Positions 2,912 through 58,012 of a stretch of 64,000 nucleotides of DNA are shown here, piece after piece. Within the stretch, counting starts at the first letter, position 1, and each line of letters begins with the position of its first letter. The translations under genes were made by a program, and so were the position numbers. The stretch is from Mobula hypostoma (Eukaryota), in the NCBI RefSeq assembly GCF_963921235.1, contig NC_086107.1, positions 97,528,001 through 97,592,000 of the forward strand. Direction: 5' to 3'. The notes below the pieces were generated by a model, which did no database searches, was not told where the DNA came from, and saw nothing but the letters and a program-made list of their open reading frames with translations.

Positions 2912-4340
2912 ATTTTTTTCTTGCCGTTTATGCGATTTGTTCTTTTCTTTCATGTGCTGGGGGTTTGATGTTTTCCTTTAAACGGGTTCCTTGGTTTTTT
3001 TTGCTTCATGCCTGTCTGTGGAGAAGACGAATCTCTGGATTGTATACTGCAAACGTACTTGGCTAACACATGTACAGTACTTTGAACCTTGAATCTCACT
3101 TAGCATGGGCAAGCGGGGCTGAATGGCCTGCTGCTGTACTGCATACAGGTGAATCTTCCCTGAATCCTCTCCTGTGCAAGCACACCCTTCCTGTAGTGTG
3201 GCGAAGAGAACTGCAGGCAATATTCCAGACGTGGTCTAACTGTGTTCCCTCTCCCCCTGCTCTTATTCTCTGAGTACCCCTAATGAAGTTCAGAATCCTG
3301 TATCCTCCACCTCCCCGCTGATAACCAGTTTCACAGCCGGCTCCTCTTTGGTCTTGCCGAGTGTCAGGACTCTGTGAAAGGCTGCAGTCAGCGGGGAGCG
3401 AGAAGCTTCAGACCAAGTGCTTTGCAACTAAGAGCTTCAAGCACTTTACGGTCAAATCTTAGCAACATCTGCTGGACAATCAAATCGGCAGAGACTCAGA
3501 GGGAGATGGCAGCTCCCCTTCCAGCTGCTGCTCCTGAAGGGAAGGATGTAACCAACCTTGGGTGCTTTATCACTTTACACTGAGTCACAGAGCTGTACAG
3601 CACAGAACAGACCCTTCGGCCCGTCAGCTCCATACTGACACTTGTGCTCATCTCCACTCATCCTATCCACTGCTTTAGGACTATAACCTTCCATACCATC
3701 TAAGTGCTCTTTCAAAACCAACAATTGTTTCTGATATCAACCAGTCTCCGTGTATAAAAATATTTATTTGTCGATTGATTGATTGCAATATAGCACAGAA
3801 CAGGCCCTTCCGACCCTTCGAGCCACGTCGCCCAGCAATCCCGCGATTTAATCCTAGCCTAGTCGCGGGACGACTTACAATCACCAATTAACCGGTGCGT
3901 CTTTGGACTGTGGGAGCCACCTGGAGCACTCGGAGGAAACCCACGTGGTCACGGGGAGAATGTAAGATCTCCTTGCAGGCCGTCAGAACCCTCCCTCTCA
4001 CTTAAAACGATGCACTCTCGTCTTGGACAGAAATACTATGGGAAAGGATTTTGACCATCTAGGATTTGACCTCATAAATGAGTATGCTTCTTCGATATCC
4101 CCTCAGCCTCCTTTACTCCACAGGAAGTAAGCCCAGACTAACCTGTGGAATTGGATTTGCTTTACTATTGTCTCTTGCATCCTGATACAGTGAAAAGTTC
4201 ACCTTGGCGCTCCTTATACAGATCAAACCACTACACGGTGCATTGAGGTAGTTGGGTGACGGGGTGGAGATGTGTCTCTACCAAAGGAGGTGTGAGATGC
4301 TCCTTCCCCCCGCTAGGTCACCCTTGGGCAAGGTGTAGCA

Positions 4341-12359: not shown

Positions 12360-13850
12360 ACCTGTAGGATGTGCATCTGGCTGATCTCTTTAGGAAATGG
12401 AGCTGGAGATGGATATACTGAGGAATGTCCGGGAAGCTGAGATCACCTTTGACAAGAGGTGGTCACACCTAAGGTGCAGGCAGTAGATAGTTGGTTGACC
12501 ACAAGGAAAGGTAGAGGGAGCAGGCAGGTTCCCGTGTGGCCATCCCCCCTCAGCAACAAATATACCCCTTTGGATACCACGGTAGGGGGGCATGGCATGA
12601 CCTCGGAGGGAGAAGATGGTGGCGTGACGCAGCCTGCGCGGCCGTTCCAAATTGATATCGTATGTGTGAAGTAGGAAGCCGTGCACAATCCGGATTTGAT
12701 GGAGACAGCCGTGAGAAGCACGGAGGAACATCTGGAGTAACTTCTGAAATGCCCGCTTCGCTGCCGCTGCTACTGTGCGATCGAGAATCTCCGGAGGGGA
12801 AGGCCCCAAATCCTCGGCTTTGCCTATTGCCTGTTGCTGGGGCCGGGGTCGAAGCACTCGGCAGAGCTGGTGCTCGGTGCTCGGTGTCGGAGAGCTGGTT
12901 GGAGGCTCGGAGCTTTCGGACAGACTCGGAGTCGGACTGTGGTCGGATGCTTCCAGGATGCTGCATCGGCAAGTTTGCGGCGCTGGAGGTTCACCGTCTG
13001 CGTGAGATGACGGGACTTTCGAGCGACTCTGAGACTTTACCGTGCCCATGGTCTGTTCTTAACAAATTACGGTATTGCTTTGCACTGTTGTAACTATATG
13101 TTATAATTATGTGTTTTTTGTCAATTTTTCAGTCTTGGTTTGTCATGTGTTTGTGTGATATCATTCTGGAAAAACATTGTATCATTTCTTAATGCATGCA
13201 TTACTAAATGACAATAAAAGAGGACTGAGTGTCCTCATATTCTAATCTAATCACCTCTTGGGTGTACAGCAGCAGTAGGCAGAGCAGTAGCACTGAGGCT
13301 CAGTGGGGGTGGATTCAGGTGGAACAATAGTGATAAGAGACTCGATAGTTCCGGGGGAGGGTCTGGGCCAGCAAAAGAGTCGTCAGGATGGTGCGCTGCC
13401 ACCCTAGCTCCAGAGCCGAGGGTATCTCAGAGTGCCCGCAGGACACGCTCAGAAAGGGAGGGTGAGCATCAAGAGGTGGAGGTGCACACGGGCACCGTTT
13501 ACGCAGGTAGAAAGGGGGAAGAGATCCTGCGCAGAGAGTATAGGGAGTCAGAGAGGAGACTGAAGTGGACCTTGATCTTTGTAATCTCTGGATCACCCCA
13601 GTGGCCACGTGCTAGTCTGGGCAGGAACAGAAAGATAAATGAGTGGCTGAGGAACTGGTGCTTCAGGTCCTTAGGTCATTGGAGCTCTTCTGGGGAAGGG
13701 ATGTCCTATACAACAGGAACGGGCTAGGCCTTAACTGGAGCGGATCTGATATCCCGGCTAAGGGGTTAGCTGCTTCCTCTACTGAGTTTGGCAGGGGAAT
13801 GGGAGCCACAGGCCAGAATACAGATGGACTGGGAGGAAGGTAGATGTCAT
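12360..13850 (+). mobile_element. Old CR1 ORF1 remnant interrupted by a younger non-autonomous non-LTR element (about 12605-13252)
   Basis: Degenerate CR1 ORF1/esterase similarity. The insert starts gggagaagatggtggcg and ends aataaa...(ctaat)n, with acctc on both sides. Confidence 0.55.
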
Positions 13851-14063
13851 GACCAGCAAGAACAGGCAAGGAGCAAGTTTACAGACACAAAAGAACATAT
13901 TGAAGTGAGCTTATCCTAATACCAGCAAGATTTGTTATCTAATTAACAAAATAAACTTTATTCGCAATTAAAAAATTACAATAAACCATTTAATACTTTC
14001 CATACTGTTATGGGTAATGGTGATGAACTTAAGAGCATGGTCCAGCAGATGGAACTATGATAC

Positions 14064-15702
<1,639 letters not shown>

Positions 15703-38000: not shown

Positions 38001-41000
38001 TTCTTGGTGCAATGAAACCTCTCTGCTGCATTTCTTAGGATTCCACCTGATCTTCCTGCCATTTGCCGATGACATCAGGAAGGTCAGTTTCACAGAGAAG
38101 GTGGTGGCCAATCGAGATCAGATCGAGAAGATGAAGAGAGTGGTGCAGAAGCTCAGGTTCAAGTACAGGTCAGTGGCAAGTTTGGAAACTAACTTCGTAG
38201 CACAGCTGTCCACGTGCCTGTTGTATTACTGAGGGCAGTTGTGTGCTTTGGAACAGGAGCGGGTGAACCTGCAAAACCCACGCTGGCCAACAGCTTGCAG
38301 CTAGCCAGCTCATTTAACATTGTAAGCTGTTGCAAAGCCCTTGACACAAGGTTATGGATGGAGATACAGGTTGAGTACCCCTTATCTAAAACGCTTGGAG
38401 CCGCAAGTGTTTCTGATTTCAGATTTTTTTTCAAATTTTGGAATGTATAATATGATAGCTTGGGATTGCCATCATTTCCGACTGAATTGATGTGCTAACA
38501 GTAAGCTGTCTTACACTTGTTCATCAGACATAGGAACTGATGCAGCCATTCTGTGTGTTAGGTTTTCATCAGTAACGATCTTAGCAAACTCTTCAATTAA
38601 TTTCTCTGCTGCTCCATGATCAGTAGACCCTTTATCACCACAAATTCTTTAAAAGTGGAGTGCTGTAAATTTCTGCTACCAGCATGCAGAACATTCACAA
38701 TTTCCTTCAATTTTCAATTCGTTGTGATGGATCTTTGCTTGTTTCCTGATCAGCGTACCGTTAAGCGGCATGTTCACTCTGACACTGATGAATCCACTCT
38801 ATCAGTAGACGATCGAGATCTTTACTTTTCTCTTTACGCAGTATTTTCCTATTTGTCATTAACTTCTGTTCATTACATATGTGAGGTCACTTCTCAGAAC
38901 TGTGTGGTGCGCAGAGACCTGCTCATTGCCTGGAAGCCTTCCCAGAGCCTTGGGAATTTCCATTTATGACGTCATGTCAGCACTCAAAACTTGGGATTTT
39001 GGAATTTCGAATAAGGGGTACCCAGCCTGTATTAGGATAGGTAGGTGAAGGAATGGTTAATGGAATAGACACAACTCAAAGAAGCAAAGTTGAAAATCAA
39101 GTTTTTTGACATATGCAAGTGTACAGGTGCAATGAAAAACTTGCCTGGACCAGCATCACAGTTACATAGCATCGAATAAGCAGCATTCACAAGAAAAACA
39201 TCAATTATACATGACGTTTACAAGAAAGAACACAATTAGATCTAAAAGTCCAATTTGGTTTGGTGGTCACAGTGTGGCTAGACTATCAGTTGGTTCAAGA
39301 ATCAGATGGTTGAAGGAAAGCAGCTGTTGTTGAACCTGGTGGCGTCGGACTTCAGGGTTCTGTACCTTCTGCCTGATGGTAGATGGCATGCACCACACGG
39401 TGGGGATCTTTGATAATGGATGTTACCTGAAGGCACACACTCAGCGATTCAGGAACAGCTTCTTCCCCTCTGCCATCCGATTCCTAAATGGACATTGAAT
39501 TTTTTGAAAATATATATTATTTCTGTTCTTGCACGATTTTTAATTTATTCAATATACATATACTGTGATTGATTTACTTATTTATTACTTTTATATATTT
39601 TTTCCTCTATATTATGTATTGCATTGAACTGCTGCTGCAGAGTTAACACATTTCACCACACATGCCTGTGATAATAAACTTGATTCTGACCTTCCAGAGG
39701 CAACACCTCCTGCAGATATTACTGATGGTAGGGAGGGATATGCCTGTAATGTATTGCGTAGAGTCCGCTCGGCATTTTTTTTGCATTGTTGAGCATTAAA
39801 TTGTTGAACCAGTTAACAGTATATCTGTAGAAATTTGTTAGTGTTCGACAACAAGCTGAACCTACCTCACCTCCTAAGTAAAGATGCTGATGCACTTATG
39901 AAACTTAAGAAGCGAGTTCTAAAGGTTAAGACCCAATCTTAGCTGCAGTGGTGAGAGATTCACTGGCGCTCTCTCGCTGTTCAAATTATACATGACTGGA
40001 CATAGCTATGTCTGCCACATGACAGCTGTTGCCAGGTTTTGTAGTTTCTGAATGGTCTGATGGCTTCTGGTGGCAGTGATCATAATTCACACTGATCAGG
40101 TAAATGTTTCCTATTGCATATTGATACTGATTTTGCCTGTTGTAATATTAAGGGCAAAGACGTGGTCTGTGTTTTGAGCTCCTATTTTCATCTGAGCCAG
40201 GGAAGATTCCCTCATCTTCTCTTTTCCCCATTGAGAATAATAAATCACAAAAGGTGGCCATTGGGCCCATCACACCTGTTCTTCCAATCACTAAGCTCAT
40301 GTCAAATATATTACCTCACTATCACTCAAAATCTCCGTAAGACATGGGAGCTGAATTAGGCTATTTGGCCCATCAAGTCTACTCCACCATTCACGACTGA
40401 CTTTATTATCCCTCAACAGCATTCTCCAGCCTCCTCCCCATAAACTTTTGAAACCTTTTCTAATCAGGATTCTGTCAACCTCCGCTTTAAATATACCCAA
40501 ATGACTTGGCCTCCATAGCTGTCTGTGGGAATGAATTCCACAGATTCACCACCCTCTGGCTTAAGAAATCCCTCCTTATCTCTTTTCTTTATTTTTATTT
40601 TTTTTAATATAATTTTTATTGAGTTTTCAAAAAGAATACATGAAAAGATAAAATCTACCCTCCCCCCTCCCCTTAACCCTCCCCCCCCCATATATATAGT
40701 CCTACCTAAAAAGAAAAAAAAGAAAAGAGCCGCCTGGGTATTGGAAGGTTTCCACATGCTCCATGGGATTCAAAATAAATTTGGAATAATTATTCGTTGC
40801 TTTCCCCGAGGGACCAAGGTCTTTATCGGAGCACTTAAATACGACATCCTATCTTTTGTAAATAAGGGCGCCAAATATTCAAAAATGTTACATATTTATC
40901 TCTTAAATTATAAGTAATTTTTTCGAGTGGAATAGAACTAGTCATTTCATTATTCCAACGATCCATACTTAAATACGAATCAGATTTCCAAGTAACTGCT

Positions 41001-44000
41001 ATAGTCTTCTTAGCTACTGCCAATGCAATTTTTATAAATTCTTTCTGATATTTATTCAATTTAAGTTTCGGTTTTATCCCTTCAATATCACCTAATAGAA
41101 ATAATACAGGGTTATGTGGAAGTTGAGTTCCAGTAATTTGTTCCAATAAGACTCTTAAATTTATCCAAAAGGGTTGAATTTTAAAACAAGACCAAGTAGA
41201 ATGTAAAAAAGTACCAATTTCTTGATTACACCGAAAGCATTTATCAGATAGATTTGAATTTAATCTATTTATTTTTTGTGGTGTAATATATAATTGGTGT
41301 AAAAAATTATATTGTACTAATCTAAGTCGAACATTTATTGTATTTGTCATACTGTCAAGACAGAGTCTTGACCAATTTGTTTCATCAATATTAATATTCA
41401 AATCTGTTTCCCATTTTTGCATTGACTTATGGGTTCCTTGTTTAATTGTCTGTTCTTGAATCAAATTATACATACAAGAAATAAATTTTTTAATTTTCCC
41501 TTTTTGAATTAAAATTTCAATTTCATTAGGTTTTGGCAAAAACATTGTTTGACCCAGCTTACCTTTTAAGTAAGCCCTTAATTGAAGGTAACAAAAGAAA
41601 GTATTATTAGATATTTTATATTTATCCTTTAATTGTTCAAATGACATCAATATACCTCGTTCAAAACAATCTCCTATAAATTTAATCCCTTTTTGGTACC
41701 AATTATATAAAAGTTGATTGTCCATTGTAAAAGGAATAAGTCTGTTTTGAAACAAAGGTCTCCTTGCTAATAGAGATTTCTGTGTTTCATTATCATCATT
41801 TATCTTATTCCATAAATCAATCAAATGTGTTAATATAGGAGATTCTTTCTTTTCCCGTATCCATTTAGATTCCCATTTATATATAAAATCTTCAGGTTCA
41901 TTTTCTCCTATCTTGTCTAGTTCTATTTTAATCCATGCTGGTTTTTGATCATCGAAGAAAGATGCAATAAATCTAAGTTGATTTGCTTTATAATAGTTTT
42001 TAAAGTTTGGAAGTTGTGACCCTCCTAACCTAAATTTACATGTCAGTTTTTCCAATGATATTCTTGACATTTTACCTTTCCAAAGAAATTTTCTCACACA
42101 TTTATTTAACTCTTGAAAAAATTTGTGTGGCAATTGTATTGGTAATGTTTGAAACAAATACTGTAATCTAGGAAATATATTAATTTTTACAACATTGACT
42201 CTACCTACTAATGTTATTGGTAGTATCATCCATTTGTCAAAATCTTCTTGAATTTTTTTCAACAGCGGTAAATAATTAAATTTATATAAATTCTTTACAT
42301 CATTATCAAGTCTTATACCTAAATACTTTATACCATTTACCGGCCATCTAAATTGGGTTACTAATCGACATTGACTATAGTCTCCTTTAGTAAGAGGTAA
42401 AATTTCACTTTTATCCCAATTTATTTTGTAACCTGATACCTTCCCATATTCATCCAATCTAGAAGATAGTTTATGTAACGAATGTTGTGGGTTTGTTAAA
42501 TAAATCAAAACATCATCGGCAAAAAGATTAATTTTTTATTCCTCCTGATTAACTCTAAAACCCATAATATCTGGATCAATTCTGATTAGTTCTGCTAATG
42601 GCTCTATCGCCAGTACAAATAAAGCAGGTGATAATGGACAACCTTGTCTAGTTGACCTTTTTAACTGAAATGGTGTTGAAATTTGAGAATTTGTCACTAC
42701 TTTAGCTTTAGGGTTAGAATTTAAAGTTTTAATCCAATTTATAAAAGATGTTCCTAACCCATATTTTTCTAATACTTTAAATAAAAAATCCCATTCTAAT
42801 CTATCAAATGCTTTTTCTGCATCCAAAGCTACTACTATGCTCTTCTCATCCCTTTTCTGTGCCAAATGAATTATACTGAGTAGCCGGGTTACATTATCTG
42901 CCAATTGTCTATTTTTAATAAATCCTGTTTGATCCATATGTATTAATTTTGGTAAATATTTAGATAATCTATTCGATAAAATTTTTGCTATTATTTTATA
43001 ATCTGTATTCAATAAAGAAATAGGCCTGTATGATGTTGGTTTCATAGGGTCTCTGTCTTTTTTTGGCAATACTATTACAATCGCTGTTGAAAAAGATTCT
43101 GGAAGTTTATGTATTTTTTCTGCTCGACGTATTAGTTCCATAAAAAGAGGAAATAATAAATCTTTAAATTTTTTATAAAATTCAGGTGGAAAACCATCTT
43201 CTCCTGGAGATTTATTACTTTGGAGTGATCCTAAAGCTTCTTCAACTTCTTTTAATGTAAAAGGCATATCTAATCCCTTCTGTTCTTCCAAATTCAATTT
43301 TGGAAGAGAAATTTGTGATTAAAAACCTTTCTATCTCATTAACATCATTTTGGGATTCTGATTGATATAAATCAGAATAGAAATTTTTAAAAGTTTCATT
43401 TATTTCAAGAGGTTTATAAGATATTTTATTTGCCCTTGTTCTAATTGCATTTATTGTTTTGGAAGCTTGTTCTGTTTTCAACTGCCAGGCAAGAATTTTA
43501 TGTGCTCTCTCACCTGACTCATAATACCTTTGTTTAGTTCTTATAATTGCTTTTTCTGTTCTATATGTCTGAAGCGTATTATATTGTAACTTATTATTAA
43601 CAAGTTGTCTTCGTTTTTCTTCTGACATATATCTTTGAGATTCTTTTTCTATTTTTGTAATCTCTTTTTCCAATTGATCTAGTTCTGCCATATATTCTTT
43701 CTTAATTTTAGACGTATAACTTATCATCTGGCCCCTAAGATATGCTTTCATCGCATCCCATAATATAAATTTATCATCCACTGAATGAAAATTTGTATCC
43801 AAAAAGAATTGAATCTGCTTTTTCATAAAATGACAGAAATCTTGACGTTTTAATAATGTTGAATTAAATCTCCATCTATAAGCCACTTCTTCCTTATCAG
43901 CCATTATTATTGTCATTAATAAAGGGGAATGATCTGATAATGTTCTTGCTTTATATTCCATATTTTTCACTCTGTGTTGAATATGCATTGATAATAGAAA

Positions 44001-47000
44001 CAAATCTATCCTTGAGTAAGTTTTATGTCTATGGGAGTAAAACGAATAGTCTCTTTCTTTAGGATTGATTCTTCTCCATATATCAATCAAATTTAAATCC
44101 TTCAACAATGATGAAGTTAAATTTACTACCTTCGATTTTATAACAGCCTTGGTTGATTTATCTAAGACTGGGTCTAAGCAAAAATTAAAGTCTCCTCCAA
44201 TTAATTTTTTTTCATGTGCATCCGCCAAATTCAGAAAAGCTTCTTGTATGAATTTTGTATCATTTTCGTTTGGTGCATAAATATTCATAAAAGTCCATAA
44301 TTCAGAAAAAAGTTGACAATGTATAATCACATATCTCCCCGCAGAATCAGTTATTACATTTTGTATTCTAATTGGTAACGTTTTATTGATCAAAATTGCT
44401 ACTCCCCTCGCTTTTGAATTAAATGAAGCCGCAACAACACTACCCACCCAATCTCTCTTTAGTTTCTGATGTTCTGTTTCTGTTAGGTGCGTTTCCTGTA
44501 AAAAAGCTAAATCTATCTTCATTTTTTTAATATGTGTTAAGATTCTTTTTCTTTTCACTGGTCCATTAAGCCCATTAAAATTAAAACTCAAAAAATTCAA
44601 TAAATTAGTCATTATTCTTAACAAAGTTACTCCAATCTGAAACACTACTTATCTTCTCAACTCTCATAGTTCCTTGGGGAATCTCTTTAAACTTCACCAT
44701 GTTGCTATGTGTTTCCCTCCCAACCTTCCAGGCAAAAAGAAAAGAAAAGATAGAAAGAATACAAAAAAAGAAAAAACAAAATACCCCCCCCACTAATGTT
44801 GTGAATGAAAAGATACACAACACTACCCCCCTCCATTTTACGGGTCGTGGCAAAAGCCACGCTTGCACACATGATTAGCATGGCAATCGATCAGTGCTTC
44901 TTCCAGCTCCCCCGCAACAAAAAAAATTATATATATATAGGCAAAATTAATGTTACTATTCCCAACTAATATTCCTCCAGTTTTAACCTTTCTTACCCCC
45001 CCGTATAATTAATGATGTATTTATACATTCATCCAGCTTCAAAAATCCAACAAGTCCATTCTTTAACCCAATCTTCATCTTCAATCTATCTCGCTCCCCT
45101 GGATTTGTTCTTGTATCTGGTGAATATTCAGAGAATCTCGCACAAACTGCTCTGCTTTCTGGTAGTCATCAAAAAATCTCTTTTCTCCACCAGGCAAAAA
45201 AATCTTCAAGGTTGCAGGGTAACGCAGTATAAATTGATAACCATGGTCCCATAGGGTTTTTTTCACTGGATTAAATTTCTTCCTTCTCTTCAAAAGTTCA
45301 TAACTTATATCAGGGTAGAAAAAAACTTTAATCCCTTTAATTATCAATGGCCCTTTTCTATCCTTGGCAGCTCGAGCAGCTGCCTGTAGAATCCTTTCCT
45401 TGTCTTGAAATCTTAAGAATTTTATTAAAATCGATCGTGGATATTGGTCATCTTTTGGTTTTGGTCTTAGAGCTCTATGTGCCCGCTCAGTTTCAATTGG
45501 TCGAACCTCCTCTTCCATTTGCAAAATATCCGGGATCCATTTTTGAAAAAATTCTATTGGATTTTCTCCCTCCGTACCTTCTTTAAGACCAACAATTTTA
45601 ATATTATTACGTCTACTGAAATTTTCCAACATGTCCAAGAGTCGATTTCTTTCCGAGTTCCAGACAAGCAAATCATTTTCTGTTTTTTCCACTCTATCAT
45701 TCATATGCCCCATTGCTCTTTCCATTTTTTGAAGCTTCTTATCCATTTTGTCCTGTCTTTCCATAACTTTATTATAGCACATCTTCGTATCTCTAAGCTT
45801 TTCTCTTACTTTTCTTCGTTCAGCCGTTAATTGCAATATGGCCTCTCGTATGTCTCTATCATCTCCTTTACTCCCACTCGCTTCCAATTCTTCCTCCTCT
45901 TCTTCATCTGTGTTCTCTGCAGAATCCGATTCTGACTCTGAGTCATTTTCAATTGCAGTGGCTGACGGTTCTTGTAGTTTGCGTTGTGTCGATTTGTGCA
46001 TGCGCTCTTCTTTGCACATGCGCATTTCCGGTGCCTTCTTCGAAGAACCCGTTACCACCGCCATTGCTCCCTGTTCTACCGAAGGAAATCCAACCTGAGT
46101 CTGAGGCTCCATCGTTGCAGTAGTCCCTTTTTTCTTCCCCTCTCGCGGCTGCTTCGCAACATCAGACTTCTTTTGTTGCAGTTTAGGAGGCATATCGTAA
46201 AGTAATCTTACAAAGTTTATAAATAGTTTTCAGAAAATATTTACCAACTTTGTTTTATTTAAACGGTACTTTACTAATTTGTTGCGGGAGAGCTGGATTT
46301 ACACGTCTCAGTTCCATGTCATCACGTGACGCCCCCCCCCCCCTTATCTCTTTTCTAAAAGGATGTCTTTGTATTCTGAGACTCTGTCCTCTGGTGCTAG
46401 ACTCTCCCACTATTGGAAACTTCCTTTCCATGTCCACTCTATCTACGCCTTTCAATATTCAGTGAGATTCCGCCCCCTCCCCCATTCTTTTAAACTCCAG
46501 CCAGTACGGGCCCAGAGCTATCAAATGCACTCGCAAACACAAATCTCAGCACTCATCCTCTTTAGCGAATTCCAAAGGTTTATCACAGTGGGTGAAGGCA
46601 TTCTTTCTCAATTCAGACCCAAGTGGCTGCCCTGTCCTCTTGTGAACACGGCTCTAGACACCCCCAGGCAAGGGAGGCATTGTATCTACATCCACCTTGC
46701 TGAGCCCTGCAAGAATCTTACACATTTCAATGAGATCTCTACTCATTCTTCCTAATCCTAGAGGGTAAAGGCCATCCCTGTGCTTAATCTCTCCTGACAT
46801 GACAAACCTTCATCCCAAGAATCAATCAAGAGATTCCCTGGGTTATCCCTCTTCTTCCCGGGGTATTGGTAGATGAATAGATGTTGGTCAAAACCAGGGA
46901 GAGCTCAGCCAGTCTTGTTCCATCAACCTGAGGGGTCAGTGGGTTCACAGCATCAGATGGTCGGTCAAGCGACTGAAGCCTGATTGGAACCTCTCATTCA

Positions 47001-50000
47001 GGGGCTCGAGTGCAGCAGCTGACACCACAGTGCCATTCTCCCGATCTACTGACCGCCACTGATCCAACACCCACCTGTTCTGTCTGTGGGATCTTTCTAT
47101 GTATAAAATGCTTCCTGTCGCTGACAGTGGATGTAGTTCAGGGTGTTTGGACCGAGAGTGTCACGAGAGGGAAAGAAGAGACCTTTCTACTGAGTTGGTC
47201 CGATAATTGTCAGTGATTATACAGCTTCGCTCTCTCCCTGGTTGATTCATGTCACAACCTGACAGGCTTTGCACTGACCTGAGATGCCAAACCTGGATTG
47301 CACTGCAGAAACAGGTGAGACAAACCAGAGACAGCCACCCCCCTCCGGCAGCATCTCCTTAAAGAAAGGGTGACAGTTTGTGTTCTGTCTGCAGGCCCGA
47401 GAGCTTTGAGAACCCTGTGATTCAGAAGCACTTCCGCAATCTGGAGGCACTGGCGCTCGATTTAGAGGAACCAGAAGAAATGGAGGACCTGACACGTGAG
47501 TTGTTGAGCTCCTAGCGGGAGGAGTTATACATGACACTGCAGGTGCAGACCAAGCACACTAAATCTATCAGTCTGATTTAGGGTTAGCTAGATATTCGGC
47601 CCATTAGCCACTATTCTAGCTACTGACGCGTGTTCCTTGTGGGCGGGCTATCTGATTTGGATGGCAAGATGGAGATACGTCTCCACCAAAGGAAGTGTAA
47701 GGAACTCCTTCCCCGTATTGGCCTGCAGAGTCACCCTTGGGCAAGGTGTAGCACCTACTTCCCACCCCAACTAGGGTCATGTGAAGCCATGGAAGCAGGT
47801 GGTGGATGGTCATATGAGCAGCTGGTGCATATCACAGGTCCTGGTTATGTGACCACTGACACCAGGTGGATAATCTTTGAAGAATATTGATAATGGCTGG
47901 GGTAACCTGCCTTGTAAGTATACCGCCAGGAAGAATGGCAAACCACTTCTGTAGAACAATTTGGTAAGCACCATCATGGTCATGGGACCATGAACGCCCA
48001 CCTCATACAAAACGGCACGTGATAATGATGTCATACAACATGGCACATGATGATGATGTATCTGGATAGTGGGTGAGGACTGGAAACGTAAACACGAGGA
48101 ATTCTGCAGATGCTGGAAATTCAAGCAACACATGTCAAAGTTGCTGGTGAACGCAGCAGGCCAGGCAGCATCTCTAGGAAGAAACATAGAAACATAGAAA
48201 ATAGGTGCAGGAGTAGGCCATTCGGCCCTTCGAGCCTGCACCGCCATTTATTATGATCATGGCTGATCATCCAACTCAGAACCCAGCCTTCCCTCCATAC
48301 CCCGTGACCCCTGTAGCCACAAGGGCCATATCTAACTTCCTTTTAAACATAGCTAATGAACTGGCCTCAACAGTTTGCTGTGGCAGAGAATTCCACAGAT
48401 TCACCACTCTCTGTGTGAAGAAGTTTTTCCTAACCTCGGTCCTAAAAGGCTTCCCCTCTATCCTCAAACTGTGACCCCTCGTTCTAGACCTCCCCAACAT
48501 CGGGAACAATCTTCCCGCATCTAGCCTGTCCAATCCCTTTAGGATCTTATACGTTTCAATCAGATCCCCCCTCAATCTTCTAAATTCCAACGAGTACAAG
48601 CCCAGTTCATCCAGTCTTTCTTCACATGAAAGACCTGCCATCCCAGGAATCAATCTGGTGAACCTTCTTTGTACTCCCTCTATGGCAAGGATGTCTTTCC
48701 TCAGATTAGGGGACCAAAACTGCACACAATACTCCAGGTGTGGTCTCACCAAGGCCTTGTACAACTGCAGTAGTACCTCCCTGCTCCTGTACTCGAATCC
48801 TCTCGCTATAAATGCCAGCATACCGTTCGCCTTTTTCACCGCCTGCTGTACCTGCATGCCCACTTTCAATGACTGGTGTATAATGACACCCAGGTCTCGT
48901 TGCACCTCCCCTTTTCCTAATCGGCCACCATTCAGATAATAATCTGTTTTCCTATTTTTGCCACCAAAGTGGATAACTTCACATTTATCCACATTAAATT
49001 GCATCTGCCATGAGTTTGCCCACTCACCCAACCTATCCAAGTCACCCTGCATCCTCTTAGCATCCTCCTCACTGCTAACACTGCCACCCAGCTTCGTGTC
49101 ATCCGCAAACTTGGAGATGCTGCATTTAATTCCCTCATCCAAGTCATTAATATATATTGTAAACAACTGGGGTCCCAGCACTGAGCCTTGCGGTACCCCA
49201 CTAGTCACCGCCTGCCATTCTGAAAAGGTCCCGTTTATTCCCACTCTTTGCTTCCTGTCTGCTAACCAATTCTCCACCCACACCAATACCTTACCCCCAA
49301 TACCATGTGCTTTAAGTTTGCACACTAATCTCCTGTGTGGGACCTTGTCAAAAGCCTTTTGAAAATCCAAATATACCACATCCACTGGTTCTCCCCTATC
49401 CACTCTACTAGTTACATCCTCAAAAAATTCTATGAGATTCGTCAGACATGATTTTCCTTTCACAAATCCATGCTGACTTTGTCCGATCATTTCACCGCTT
49501 TCCAAATGTGCTGTTATCACATCCTTGATAACTGACTCCAGCAGTTTCCCCACCACCGACGTTAGGCTAACCGGCCTATAATTCCCCGGTTTCTCTCTCC
49601 CTCCTTTTTTAAAAAGTGGGGTTACATTAGCCACCCTCCAATCCTCAGGAACTAGTCCAGAATCTAACGAGTTTTGAAAAATTATCACTAATGCATCCAC
49701 TATTTCTTGGGCCACTTCCTTAAGCACTCTGGGATGCAGACCATCTGGCCCTGGGGATTTATCTGCCTTCAATCCCTTCAATTTACCTAACACCACTTCC
49801 CTACTAACATGTATTTCGCTCAGTTCCTCCATCTCACTGGACCCTCTGTCCCTTACTATTTCTGGAAGATTATTTATGTCCTCCTTAGTGAAGACAGAAC
49901 CAAAGTAATTATTCAATTGGTCTGCCATGTCCTTGCTCCCCATAATCAATTCACCTGTTTCTGTTTGCAGGGGACCTACATTTGTCTTTATCAGTCTTTT

Positions 50001-53000
50001 CCTTTTTACATATCTATAAAAGCTTTTACAGTCCGTTTTTATGTTCTCTGCCAGTTTTCTCTCATAATCTTTTTTCCCCTTCCTAATTAAGCCCTTTGTC
50101 CTCCTCTGCTGAACTCTGAATTTCTCCCAGTCCTCAGGTGAGCCACTTTCTCTGGCTAATTTGTATGCTACTTCTTTGGAATTGATACTATCCCTAATTT
50201 CTCTTGTCAGCCACGGGTGCACTACCTTCCTTGATTTATTCTTTTGCCAAACTGGGATGAACAATTGTTGTAGTTCATCCATGCAACCTTTAAATGCCTG
50301 CCATTGCATATCCACCGTCAATCCTTGAAGTGTCATTTGCCAGTCTATCTTAGCTAATTCATGTCTCATACCTTCAAAGTTACCCCTCTTTAAGTTCAGA
50401 ACCTTTGTTTCTGAATTAACTACGTCACTCTCCATGTTAATGAAGAATTCCACCATATTATGGTCACTCTTACCCAAGGGGCCTCTCACGACAAGATCGC
50501 TAATTAACCCTTCCTCATTGCTCAAAACCCAGTCCAGAATAGCCTGCTCTCTAGTCGGTTCCTCAACATGTTGGTTCAAAAAACCATCCCGCATACATTC
50601 CAAGAAATCCTCTTCCTCAGCACCTTTACCAATTTGGTTCACCCAGTCTACATGTAGATTGAAGTCACCCATTATAACTGCTGTTCCTTTATTGCACACA
50701 TTTCTAATTTCCTGTTTAATACCATCTCCGACCTCACTACTACTGTTAGGTGGCCTGTACACAACTCCCACCAGCGTCTTCTGCCCCTTAGTGTTACGCA
50801 GCTCTACCCATATCGATTCCACATCTTCCCGGCTTATGTCCTTCCTTTCTATTGCGTTAATCTCTTTTTTAACCAGCAACGCCACCCCACCTCCCCTTCC
50901 TTCATGTCTATCCCTCCTGAATATTGAATATCCCTGAACGTTGAGCTCCCATCCCTGGTCACCCTGGAGCCATGTCTCTGTGATCCCAACTATATCATAA
51001 TCATTAATAACAATCTGCACTTTCAATTCATCCACCTTATTACGAATGCTCCTTGCATTGACACATAAAGCCTTCAGGCGCTCTTTTACAACTCTCTTAG
51101 CCCTTTTTAATGCTTGCCCTGGATTTGTCGGCCTGCCACTTTTACTTTTCCCCTTTGTACTTTTTGCTTCTACGCTCACTTTACACCCCTCTGTCTCTCT
51201 GCACTGGTTCCCATCCCTCTGTTGTGAACTAACCTCCTCACACCTAGCCGCTTTAATTTGATTCCCACCCCCCAACCATTCTAGTTTAAAGTCACCTCAG
51301 TAGCCCCCGCTAATCTCCCTGCCAGGATATTGGTCCCCCTAGGATTTAAGTGTAACCCGTCCTTTTTGTACAGGTCACACCTACGCCAAAAGAGGTCCCA
51401 ATGATCCAAAAACTTGAATCCCTGCCCCCTGCTCCAATCCCTCAGCCACGCATTTATCCTCCACCTCATCGCATTCCTACTCTCACTGTCGCGTGGCACA
51501 GGCAGTAATCCCGAGATTACTACCTTTGCGGTCCTTTTTCTCAACTCCCTTCCTAGCTCCCTATATTCTTCTTTCAGGAAGAGGTACAGTCGAGGTTTCA
51601 GGCCGAGACCCTTCGTCAGGACTAACTGAAGGAAGAGCTAGTAAGAGATTTGAAAGTGGGAGGGGGAGGGGGAGATCCAAAATGATAGGAGAAGACAGGA
51701 GGGGGAGGGATGGAGCTAAGAGCTGGACAGGTGATTGGCAAAAGGGATATGAGAGGATACTGGGACAGGAGGCCTAGGGAGAACGACAAGGGGGAGGGGG
51801 GGAAGCCCAGAGGATGGGCAAGGGGTATAGTCAGAGGGACAGAGGGAGAAAAAGGAGAGTGAGAGAAAGAATGTGTGTATATAAATAAATAACGGATGGG
51901 GTACGAGGGGGAGGTGGGGCATTAGCAGAAGTTAGAAAAGTCAATGTTCATGCCATCAGGTTGGAGGCTACCCAGACAGAATATAAGGTGTTGTTCCTCC
52001 AACCTGAGTGTGGCTTCATCTTTACAGTAGAGGAGGCCGTGGATAGACATGTCAGAATGGGAATGGGACGTGGTTTTGGTTCTGTGTGGGTAGATAGATG
52101 CTGCCAAGCAAACTGAGCTTGTGGTTATCTACAGAAGGATAAAATTCTAACAGCCCAAGAGCAAATTGATATCCTTCCTTGTATCCTATAATAAACTATC
52201 ATGTATTATCCATCTGCCTCCCCCCACTCCCCCCAGTTAGTTGTTGTGTGATCCTGCAGCCGTGGGAAGGCCTCCTGCCCGGTGAACCTGCACAACTTGT
52301 CTTCTCTTGCACTTTGGTTGTTTGTCAGTCTTTGTCTGTTTATTTACAGTTATTGTACAATTGTTTTGTTTTCCTTGCAGGAAAATGAATCTGAATTTAG
52401 TATATGGTAATACATACGTACTTCGATCTTTAGAAAAATACTTTAAACTTTGAATAACCTGCCTCCATTATTTCAGCAAGCTTTTCTCCCAACCATGCCT
52501 GAGTCACCCAGCTCAGGGTGGGATGGGGTAGATGTTCTGGTCCTCAGCAAAGCGCACTGTGTATAATTGGAACAAAACCCTGTCTGTTACTCTTCCAGTG
52601 CCAAAGAACAATGTGATAGATGAGAGAATCGGCCAGCTGGCTGAGGAATTCACGAGTCTGGTTTATCCTCCTGACTACAACCCCAACGCAAAGGGCCAGC
52701 AGAAGAGGAAGCTGGGTGAGTTTCCACAGAATGAATATGCCGGGCTGTAGTTTAGAACGGGAGCGCACACACAAGGAAGACCCCTGACAACTGACAGAAG
52801 TGCCTCTCGCTATCTGAGCACTGCCAGACCGTTAGCTGCTCTTACAACATGGGAACTGTGATGGCCAATCGGTGCACAGCAGGATCCCACCAGCACCAGG
52901 TACTGACCAGTGATATCAGCTGAGGATGGATATTGGCCCACAGCCCTGCTTCTCTTCAGATGCTTTGGGATCATCTGACGGAAGAATTAGGGTGTTGGCT

Positions 53001-56989: not shown

Positions 56990-58012
56990 CAGATCCCTCT
57001 ACAAGCCATGATAGCCTTGCTTGCTGTCCACTACACCCCTAATCTTGGCGTCATCCACAAATTTGCTGGTCCAGTTAACCACATTATCATCCAGATCATC
57101 AATTATAGATAACAAACAACAAAGGACCCAGCACCGATCCCCCATCTGTTTTAGCTCCACATCTGGATTACCATTTTGATCTTCCAGAGGACCAACTTTG
57201 TCCCTTGCAATACCTTTGCTCTTAACATATCTGTAGAATTCCTTGGGATTCTCTTTCACCTTGTCTGCTCTGGAAACCTCATGCCTTCTTTTAGCCCTCC
57301 TGATTTCACTCAGGTGTTCTCTTGCATTTCTTATACTCCATAAGCATTTTATTTCTCCTTTGCTACCTATGCCTGATATGCACCTCCTTACTTTCCTTAA
57401 CCAGAGCCTCAATATCTCTCCGAAACCAAGGTACCCTACACTTGTTACCTTTTTACCTTTTATTCTGACAGGCACATACAAACTTTGTACATTCAAAATT
57501 TCCCTTTTGCATGCCTCCCACTTACCAAGTATGTCTTTGGCAGAAAATGATCTGTCCCAATCCACACTTGCCAGATCATTTCTGATACCATCAAAATTGG
57601 CCTTTCTCTAATTTAGAATCTCAACCCGCAGACCAGACCTATCCCTTTGCATATTTACTTTGAAACTAATGGCATTGTGGTCACTGGATGCAAAATGTTC
57701 CCATACAAAAACTTCTGTCACCCGCCCTGTCTCATTCCCTAATAGCAGATCCAGTATCACACACGCTGTCATTGGGATATCCATGTACTGATAAAGGAAA
57801 CTTTCCTGAACACATTTGACAAACTCTATCCTATCCAGTCCTTTTACAGAATGGGATTCCCCGTCAATATGTGAAAAATAAAATCGCCTACTGTAACAAC
57901 TTCATGTTTCTTGTAGCAGTCTGTGATCTCTCTACAAATTTGTTCCTCTAAGTCCCTAGGTCTGTTGGGTGATCTGTAATATAGTCCCATTATATGTGGT
58001 CATACCTTTCTT
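56990..58012 (-). mobile_element. Degenerate CR1 ORF2 fragment with internal deletion
   Basis: Frames KENPKEFYRYVKSK and SKFVDDAKI. Confidence 0.8.

Follow-up and report, generated by a model that had tools for sequence, protein, structure and literature searches.

Programmed −1 ribosomal frameshifting is classical in retroviruses and long terminal repeat (LTR) elements. In Rous sarcoma virus, the slippery sequence A AAU UUA stands directly before the gag UAG and is followed by a G-rich stem, while the coronavirus site carries a three-stem pseudoknot after a spacer of ∼5 to 6 nucleotides (nt); the usual spacer from heptamer to structure is 5 to 9 nt. CR1 is the main long interspersed nuclear element (LINE) of birds and is dominant also in reptiles and cartilaginous fish, and how the second open reading frame (ORF2) is translated from the bicistronic RNA of LINEs is a long-standing question. 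Here we analyzed a stretch of 64,000 nt from the ray Mobula hypostoma (RefSeq assembly GCF_963921235.1, contig NC_086107.1, positions 97,528,001 to 97,592,000; the whole stretch is called the window), in which the ORF1/ORF2 junction of a young CR1 copy on the minus strand has the makings of a frameshift site. We read this junction as a conserved programmed −1 frameshift cassette of esterase-type CR1 LINEs, which would give a fusion of the ORF1 and ORF2 proteins (ORF1p and ORF2p), and put the probability of this reading at roughly 0.6.

Among the described LINEs, SART1 and human L1 come closest in having a bicistronic RNA, an ORF2 tied to the ORF1 stop, and no usable ORF2 AUG; SART1 uses UAAUG coupling and L1 an AUG-independent route (PMC3708506 and PMC5972666, excerpts). 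Unlike the CR1 junction, neither has a slippery heptamer, both make separate proteins, and the ORFs are separated by a 63-nt spacer in L1, while in SART1 their stop and start codons overlap. HeT-A, the telomeric element of Drosophila, is a non-LTR element reported to need a frameshift for its expression, but its shift lies within gag, it encodes no reverse transcriptase (RT), and the excerpt of the recoding review at hand (PMC5009743) describes no canonical ORF1-ORF2 heptamer for it. The non-LTR elements named in that excerpt are HeT-A, TART, and L1, and CR1 is not among them. A 2013 review on the biogenesis of non-LTR proteins (PMC3894237), in the portion at hand, calls LINE ORF2 translation “an interesting and important question,” with frameshifting unmentioned there. 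We found no paper tying CR1 to a slippery site or to frameshifting in the open full-text literature, a search that did not reach the primary CR1 papers of 1997 to 2003, which may mention ORF overlap. What is new here is the element class, the depth of the conservation, and the form of the signal; −1 frameshifting itself is known.

The junction of the window copy reads, on the minus strand, GCT ACT GAG GTG ACT TTA AAC TAG, followed by AAT GGT TGG GGG GTG GGA AT. As RNA, ACU UUA AAC UAG contains an in-phase slippery heptamer that ends at the ORF1 stop, and the −1 frame (TTT AAA CTA GAA TGG ...) is open across the site from 51296, overlaps ORF1 by 13 nt in the window copy, and in the window family leads into a real protein that has no start of its own. 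An earlier note on this DNA, made from the letters alone, had placed the heptamer at 51290 to 51284 in exact X XXY YYZ phase, with the ORF1 stop, an upstream TGA, and the 13-nt overlap around it; all of these coordinates were confirmed on the minus strand, and our reading of the junction codons agrees. Its ORF2 of about 1000 codons in the −1 frame proved to have 1006 codons with endonuclease and RT Pfam domains, and the absence of an ORF2 ATG before 50672 also held, with the first Met at residue 209 (50672 to 50670), inside an endonuclease domain spanning residues 93 to 279. The G-rich stretch that it saw six nt past the heptamer is GGTTGGGGGGTGGG, at 51277 to 51264 on the minus strand. The features of the element are as follows.

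48180 to 51579, minus strand: 5′-truncated, very young CR1-type LINE copy, ∼3.4 kb of a full length of ∼4.4 kb.
51281 to 51579, minus strand: ORF1 remnant, the last 99 codons plus TAG of a 311-residue SGNH/GDSL esterase ORF1 (PF13472, E value 3.6e-9).
51297 to 51299, minus strand: TGA closing the ORF2 (−1) frame two codons 5′ of the heptamer; lineage specific, being TGG in the A2 subfamily.
51284 to 51290, minus strand: slippery heptamer, U UUA AAC, which fits the X XXY YYZ pattern in the ORF1 phase and supplies the last two ORF1 sense codons, Leu-Asn.
51281 to 51283, minus strand: ORF1 stop TAG, directly 3′ of the heptamer; TAG or TAA stands here in 11 of 11 lineage representatives.
51264 to 51277, minus strand: G-rich tract GGUUGGGGGGUGGG, starting 6 nt 3′ of the heptamer, with its G6 core (51273 to 51268) 10 nt after the heptamer.
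48276 to 51296, minus strand: ORF2 of 1006 codons and a stop, one base back (−1) from the ORF1 frame, with its first ATG at codon 209.
50460 to 51020, minus strand: apurinic-type endonuclease (EEP) of ORF2, residues 93 to 279 (Pfam PF03372, Exo_endo_phos, E value 2.9e-12; PF14529, E value 1.3e-9).
48948 to 49601, minus strand: reverse transcriptase of ORF2, residues 566 to 783 (Pfam PF00078, RVT_1, E value 1e-33).
48180 to 48275, minus strand: 3′ untranslated region with an inverted repeat GGUGCAGG...CCUGCACC at ∼48204 to 48242 and an 8-nt tandem tail, ATGTTTCT × 3.2, at 48180 to 48204 (TRF).

The terminal TTTAAAC is the sole in-phase X XXY YYZ (Y being A or T) among the 311 ORF1 codons of the full-length family, and the ORF2 of the window family has one in 1006 codons. 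The sequence TTTAAACTAG occurs once in the window, compared with 0.17 occurrences expected from shuffles.

Like gag-pol, this arrangement has a heptamer at the end of the upstream ORF, an adjacent stop, a polymerase ORF in the −1 frame without a start, and G-rich sequence soon after, and it would likewise fix the proportion of structural to enzymatic protein. Unlike gag-pol, CR1 is a non-LTR element, its ORF1p is a coiled-coil/esterase protein rather than Gag, no stem or pseudoknot is predicted, and the G-run follows after a 10-nt spacer. The heptamer is identical to the U UUA AAC of coronavirus ORF1a/1b, where the polymerase ORF is also reached by a −1 shift, but the CR1 site has no predicted structure and its 0-frame stop is immediately adjacent. 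For the downstream part, protein-stimulated frameshifting at the C-rich motif of arterivirus nsp2TF and at the cardiovirus 2A site offers no more than an analogy, since these sites too combine a long spacer with a short unstructured homopolymer-rich motif as the sole conserved downstream element. The CR1 motif is G-rich rather than C-rich, and a protein that binds it is hypothetical. By analogy, too, the CR1 spacing is like that of stimulators that lie 12 to 15 nt 3′ of the slip site and act with trans-factors, which are described in the 2016 review by Atkins (PMC5009743).

The window copy belongs to a family represented by full-length copies. It was 99.9% identical to the full-length copy L002, with homology beginning at L002 base 1422 (window 51579), and its ORF1 remnant was 99% identical to residues 213 to 311 of the full-length ORF1p (tblastn). 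The ORF1 start is absent, only the last 99 ORF1 codons being left. Because of this truncation, a point that the earlier note missed, the window copy cannot make ORF1p or use the signal, and the signal is a property of the family. Among 1418 candidates, at least 40 genomic copies matched the window without a difference (100% identity) across 401 nt that include the junction, and the same open 311-residue ORF1 was found in 12 of 30 loci fetched from the ray genome. With ORF2 intact in the window copy, the family carrying this junction anatomy is young and recently active. Because this intact ORF2 has no AUG that would give a complete endonuclease, an AUG-independent route to ORF2 is required in the window family; a start at the AUG of codon 209 would lose the N-terminal part of the endonuclease.

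Judging by the EEP and RT domains of ORF2, the ORF1 esterase, and the type of 3′ end, the element probably belongs to the CR1 clade of LINEs. The 3′ end has both a hairpin and a short 8-nt tandem repeat that replaces poly(A), which we take to be the CR1 type of ending. A GDS motif was found in the full-length ORF1, and PF13472 also matched ORF1p homologues, which include hummingbird proteins; with CR1 being the main LINE of birds, the latter lend the assignment indirect support. Esterase-bearing ORF1s of CR1-like elements were reportedly described by Kapitonov and Jurka in 2003. They are also mentioned in a review (PMC3708506).

That the heptamer is more than chance is shown most decisively by comparison among lineages. 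Searches with a Pfam model and with diverged ORF1 proteins reached seven lineages in the ray genome, which comprises 3.48 Gb in 200 contigs. The motif NNT TTA AAC plus TAG or TAA, then 7 nt, then at least five G's, was found in all seven of these CR1 lineages and in four lineages on metagenome contigs, some of them bird-like. CR1 lineages with an ORF1p identity of ∼30 to 60% agree in the heptamer and its phase, in the stop next to it, and in the −1 position of ORF2. Within the ray genome, the copies were preserved as follows.

Lineage A (subfamilies 84 to 98% identical): heptamer and stop intact in 27 of 30 copies.
Lineage A2: heptamer and stop intact in 16 of 18 copies.
Lineage B (old and decayed; ∼40% ORF1p identity to A): heptamer and stop intact in 10 of 20 copies.
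Lineage C1/C2 (young; ∼63 to 69% identical to a shark-like protein): heptamer intact in 12 of 12 copies and stop in 11 of 12.
Lineages D and E: heptamer and stop intact in 10 of 14 copies, the remaining four having one substitution each.

A scan of metagenome contigs by alignment of 32 ORF1 proteins gave 43 loci, and the ORF1 frame reaches its stop inside 17 of them. Twelve of these 17 ORF1 ends are NNT TTA AAC plus TAG or TAA, one is TCG TTA AAC TAG (an imperfect heptamer), and two loci have TTTAAAC and a stop behind an indel; the heptamer was absent in two of the 17. Several of the metagenome loci are nearest (50 to 66%) to hummingbird proteins. The earlier note had expected a real signal to keep its heptamer, phase, and −1 ORF2 across CR1 families and to have no AUG near the ORF2 start. 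For ray- and shark-type lineages this held, the adjacent stop being kept as well, whereas bird-like and some other lineages do have an AUG near the ORF2 start.

No RNA run is listed for the stretch. In contigs, of uncertain kind, from four public runs (at least 80% likeness), none of 41 listed variable sites lies within 51258 to 51293, while 51294, 51297, 51306 to 51311, 51254, and 51257 on either side are variable; a further 65 rows exist beyond these 41 sites, and contigs cannot show absence. The lack of listed variation at 51258 to 51293 gives weak support to the frameshift reading. In two A2 copies (L052 and L055), codon 11 of ORF2 is TGA, which was considered as counter-evidence and proved to be CpG decay. 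In 18 further A2 copies (L150 to L167), this codon is CGA in 9, TGA in 6, CAA in 1, and lost to an indel in 2. The same codon (window 51258 to 51260) is CAA in the window family, a clear case of CpG decay that went both ways from an ancestral CGA.

To compare positions one by one, we anchored 11 lineage representatives on the heptamer. Positions 1 to 9 (TTTAAACTA) are identical in 10 or 11 of the 11, compared with agreement in merely 4 to 6 at other ORF1 third positions. The Leu of the site is spelled TTA throughout, yet TTA has a share of 17% among the Leu codons of ORF1 plus ORF2 in the window family and, in three metagenome loci with an intact ORF2, shares of 41%, 7%, and 11% in that ORF. 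The Asn codon is likewise always AAC, which accounts for 36% of Asn codons in the window family and 27 to 57% in the three metagenome ORF2s. Thus, the synonymous positions of the heptamer are conserved among diverged relatives. The codon 5′ of Leu, in turn, encodes T, S, A, G, H, or C (ACT, AGT, GCT, GGT, CAT, TGT, TCG, and others) and ends in T in 10 of 11 representatives. As a side observation, 9 of 11 representatives share a G at position −2, where the second codon before Leu has its last base (NNG NNT TTA AAC); it is the only position conserved in at least 9 of 11 outside the heptamer, stop, and G-run and could reflect an E-site context effect.

The proteins tell a similar story over a wider range of animals. 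The best match of ORF1p to a named protein, at 98% identity, is to one of Mobula hypostoma. Eighty-three of 91 ORF1p homologues that reach the C terminus end in LN, from more than 20 named species that include rays, sharks, coelacanth, frogs (Xenopus and Hyla), turtles, squamates (lizards and a snake), and a hummingbird. A residue whose codon is unable to end in U (K, Q, E, M, or W) precedes LN in 2 of these 83 proteins, compared with 17.5% at the ten preceding positions, a contrast between related proteins for which a binomial value is not a true probability. The distance from a DGLHL motif to the C terminus is a fixed 26 residues in 76 of 89 ORF1 proteins. The codon and residue pattern at the end of ORF1 is the one to be expected of X XXY YYZ, not of a conserved dipeptide.

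Downstream of the stop, the conserved element is a run of G5 to G6, usually followed by G3 to G4 after 1 to 3 nt, that starts 10 nt past the heptamer and 7 nt past the stop; it occupies +18 to +22 in at least 9 of 11 lineage representatives. GGGGGGTGGG lies one base apart in lineages A and B, where it therefore encodes different residues (LGGG versus RGVG), and the first Gly codon is GGG flanked by G in all lineages. The presence of the same G-run nucleotides in shifted frames, together with the GGG Gly codons, indicates constraint at the RNA level. A TURBS-like (termination upstream ribosome-binding site) pairing of UGGGA in the G-tract with 18S rRNA was also considered and was rejected, as the motif varies among lineages (B has UGGGU, and M1 lacks it) and sits downstream of the stop.

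Thirty loci have both an intact site and a downstream endonuclease match. The endonuclease is in the TTT-AAA frame in 20 of them, and in the other 10 that frame meets a stop at most 87 codons from the heptamer, which we read as decay. Loci with a long intact ORF2 all have it in the TTT-AAA frame, for 974 codons from the heptamer in L081, 964 in L084, and 954 in L095. Lineages differ in where this frame offers its first ATG:

Window family: codon 209.
L084 and L085: codon 59, inside the endonuclease.
Lineage C: none before the endonuclease.
Bird-like L082, L087, and L095: codon 5.
L110: codon 4.
L091: codon 23.
L081 (the one locus with an imperfect heptamer): codon 29.
Lineage B: codon ∼16 in most copies and 8 in two.

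An AUG at or near the upstream stop, as expected of a reinitiation junction, is therefore absent from the window family, lineage C, and M1 and present in L082, L087, L095, and L110. Lineages with an AUG close by have kept the heptamer as well.

A profile search of 1.84 billion protein representatives returned 16127 matches, with 91 new representatives that reach the C terminus. Forty-four of these end in LN and 8 in GN (7 of the latter in Q-G-N). In a further clade, x-K-N stands at the same alignment column, with x being R, T, S, A, or Q in 9 of 13 sequences, followed by 10 to 13 extra residues. Q-G-N would fit CAG GGA AAC (G GGA AAC), and x-K-N would fit NNA AAA AAC (A AAA AAC); the two heptamers are canonical and share their A-site codon. 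No DNA relative of the Q-G-N and x-K-N clades was found in the genome contigs or viral contigs searched, and a search of the ray genome gave only relatives that were 33 to 44% identical, which are further LN lineages.

How the signal would work can be proposed from this anatomy. The element RNA would be bicistronic, and most ribosomes would read ORF1 (a zinc-knuckle-like N terminus, coiled coil, and SGNH esterase) and halt at UAG. A minority, with tRNA-Leu and tRNA-Asn on UUA AAC, would slip back by one base; alternatively, the slip may come one step later, while the stop codon occupies the A site of a paused ribosome. Once the tRNAs re-pair to UUU AAA, the ribosome would enter the endonuclease/RT frame and make an ORF1p-ORF2p fusion at a low and constant ratio, like that of gag-pol. 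Both the invariant adjacent stop and the run of at least five G's 10 nt downstream would be parts of the signal, and the G-run may cause pausing by forming a weak G-quadruplex or by serving as a linear motif to which a protein binds. What the analysis shows is the anatomy of the sequence and its conservation at synonymous positions; we infer the slip and its efficiency, the part played by the G-run, and an ORF2p that is active as the fusion.

Several observations weigh against a frameshift and have to be set beside those above. No stable 3′ stem or pseudoknot was predicted in the 124 nt after the heptamer of the window family (minimum free energy, −16.7 kcal/mol versus −15.5 for shuffles; z, −0.53; G-run unpaired), so that the stable stem-loop or pseudoknot 5 to 9 nt downstream that marks known cassettes is missing from the prediction, and no fold or stem shared among 20 junction sequences was predicted. 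A two-tier G-quadruplex at the G-run was predicted in 2 of the 20, the window and one other, and the 10-nt spacer is longer than usual for structured stimulators. The earlier note had suggested a stem or G-quadruplex as stimulator; we dropped the stem and kept the G-quadruplex as a possibility, and what survives of that suggestion is a plain conserved G-run. Further, an ATG stands 4 to 5 codons after the heptamer (1 to 5 nt after the stop) in L082, L087, L095, and L110, lineage B has its in-frame ATG and L081 its ATG at codon 29, and the fifth codon in the ORF2 frame is frequently an NTG (TTG, GTG, or ATG), which would suit reinitiation. A frameshift product also presumes that ORF2p tolerates an esterase fused to its N terminus. 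Finally, copy counts within one genome partly reflect shared descent, and the match of the variant ORF1p endings to other heptamers is made at the protein level.

The chief rival is termination-reinitiation of the L1/SART1 type, in which the 40S subunit would restart a few nt after UAG at an AUG or near-cognate codon and make a separate ORF2p, with TTTAAAC, stop, and G-run serving as a restart signal or being conserved in the RNA for another reason. The G-run, 7 nt past the stop, would lie at the mRNA entry channel of a ribosome on the stop codon, and the ATGs just past the stop in bird-like loci and L110, those of lineage B, and the TTG, GTG, or ATG at codon 5 in many lineages offer places to restart. 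It is also the mechanism given for SART1 and L1 in two reviews (PMC5972666 and PMC3708506). Reinitiation leaves unexplained, however, why the Leu is constantly UUA, why the Asn is constantly AAC, why the preceding codon ends in U, and why two variant ORF1p endings agree with further heptamers of the canonical kind. No AUG precedes the endonuclease domain in M1 or the active ray families, and the near-cognate codon varies in position and identity, with TGG, AGT, GCA, TCG, and GCG also occurring. We consider reinitiation unlikely on balance and at the same time a serious rival, especially for amniote lineages with an AUG after the stop, and both processes could operate. The gag-pol-like fusion proposed in the earlier note is thus partly supported by an anatomy conserved across lineages, while the AUG after the stop in bird-like lineages keeps reinitiation alive. 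The remaining explanations are unlikely. If ORF1p needed a C-terminal Leu-Asn and the slippery codons were incidental, the LN end in 83 of 91 proteins and the constant distance from DGLHL would follow, but not the fixation of TTA, AAC, and the preceding NNT at synonymous sites while other third positions vary, nor the free variation of the residues just before LN, nor the conservation past the stop of a G-run that is shifted by one base between lineages B and A; such a protein-level constraint is very improbable as the whole cause. Frames could also be fused at the nucleic acid level, by polymerase or RT slippage in a G-run or by genomic indels that join ORF1 to ORF2 with no ribosomal shift. 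Four lineage C copies (L132 to L135), chosen for their long frames out of 127 matches, have a G-run before the heptamer that is +1 modulo 3 and gives open frames of 443 to 707 residues, and two stingray RefSeq gene models (P0298 and P0037), like these copies, read ...GGFKL... across the junction. Such copies are few among the 127, however, the upstream G-run occurs in lineage C only and not in A, B, M1, or M2, the conservation of the heptamer goes unexplained, and the four-run contigs list no indel at the junction (one indel row, at 51374, at the contig level); we give this explanation hardly any credence. Looking for longer proteins, we obtained 5, each of them a chimeric gene model; one, from a stingray, joins esterase and endonuclease through ...GGFKL.... 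We set single-chain proteins aside as evidence that a fusion functions, because they are too few; they indicate that fusions arise, not that they work. A chance match in one family, lastly, might produce a single heptamer in one copy, the 10-mer being expected 0.17 times per window, and this reading is refuted by the conservation: eleven diverged lineages carry the same signal in the same phase, and it recurs in the proteins of over 20 named species.

The frameshift reading can be taken further, at odds that we would place a little short of even. In esterase-type CR1 elements from cartilaginous fish to birds, ORF2p may be made mainly or only as a fusion through a frameshift whose conservation would go back several hundred million years, with a signal composed of the heptamer, an obligatory stop, and an unstructured G-run at +10. 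The G-run would act through a bound protein, possibly ORF1p itself in a feedback, or through a weak G-quadruplex, and sister clades would use G GGA AAC or A AAA AAC in place of U UUA AAC.

If the reading is correct, CR1 would provide the first case of a non-LTR retrotransposon whose ORF1 and ORF2 are linked by a conserved canonical frameshift cassette, as well as an independent convergence on the gag-pol strategy. A CR1 signal offers a testable answer to how ORF2 is translated from a bicistronic LINE RNA, and a working signal would be a short, defined cassette of ∼40 nt, suited to a standard reporter. It would also explain the missing ORF2 start codon of many CR1 families, redraw the CR1 ribonucleoprotein as one in which RT is tethered to the ORF1p assembly at a fixed stoichiometry, and add a new type of eukaryotic stimulator, an adjacent stop plus a G-run at +10; the annotation of such elements should then change. 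If the signal fails, an equally sharp puzzle is left, namely why, from sharks to birds, synonymous sites should be fixed in a G-run and in the seven nucleotides before the stop.

Other parts of the window also contain LINE sequence. A degraded remnant of a different esterase-type CR1 ORF1 lies at 12453 to 13682 on the plus strand, with 42 to 49% amino acid identity to the young family; it was tried as a further source of a junction and is too decayed to read. It is followed by a long GT/GTGTCT-rich microsatellite (∼13950 to 14400), which accounts for the GC skew of 0.77 at 14 to 16 kb. At least 20 further fragments, between window positions 3148 and 62026 on both strands, match the 3′ half of ORF2 at 26 to 65% amino acid identity, most of them spanning the last 100 to 150 residues only, as expected of 5′-truncated CR1 copies. 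Two of the fragments, at 42398 to 43234 and 57134 to 57871 on the minus strand, are just 26 to 29% identical and probably belong to another LINE clade. An AT-rich block at 40001 to 46000 has a GC content of 0.29 to 0.36, compared with 0.43 to 0.50 in the rest of the window, and a 382-codon open frame lies at its edge (45081 to 46229, minus strand).

In public records, CR1 ORF1 proteins appear under misleading names (P0023, P0027, P0065/P0068, P0084, and P0299). For instance, an SGNH/GDSL hydrolase attributed to Pseudomonas aeruginosa is 59% identical to the ray protein and probably comes from a contaminant contig. Others are a sawfish “40S ribosomal protein S24 isoform X2,” manta “transmembrane protein 204” isoforms, and a protein of Protopolystoma, a parasite of Xenopus.

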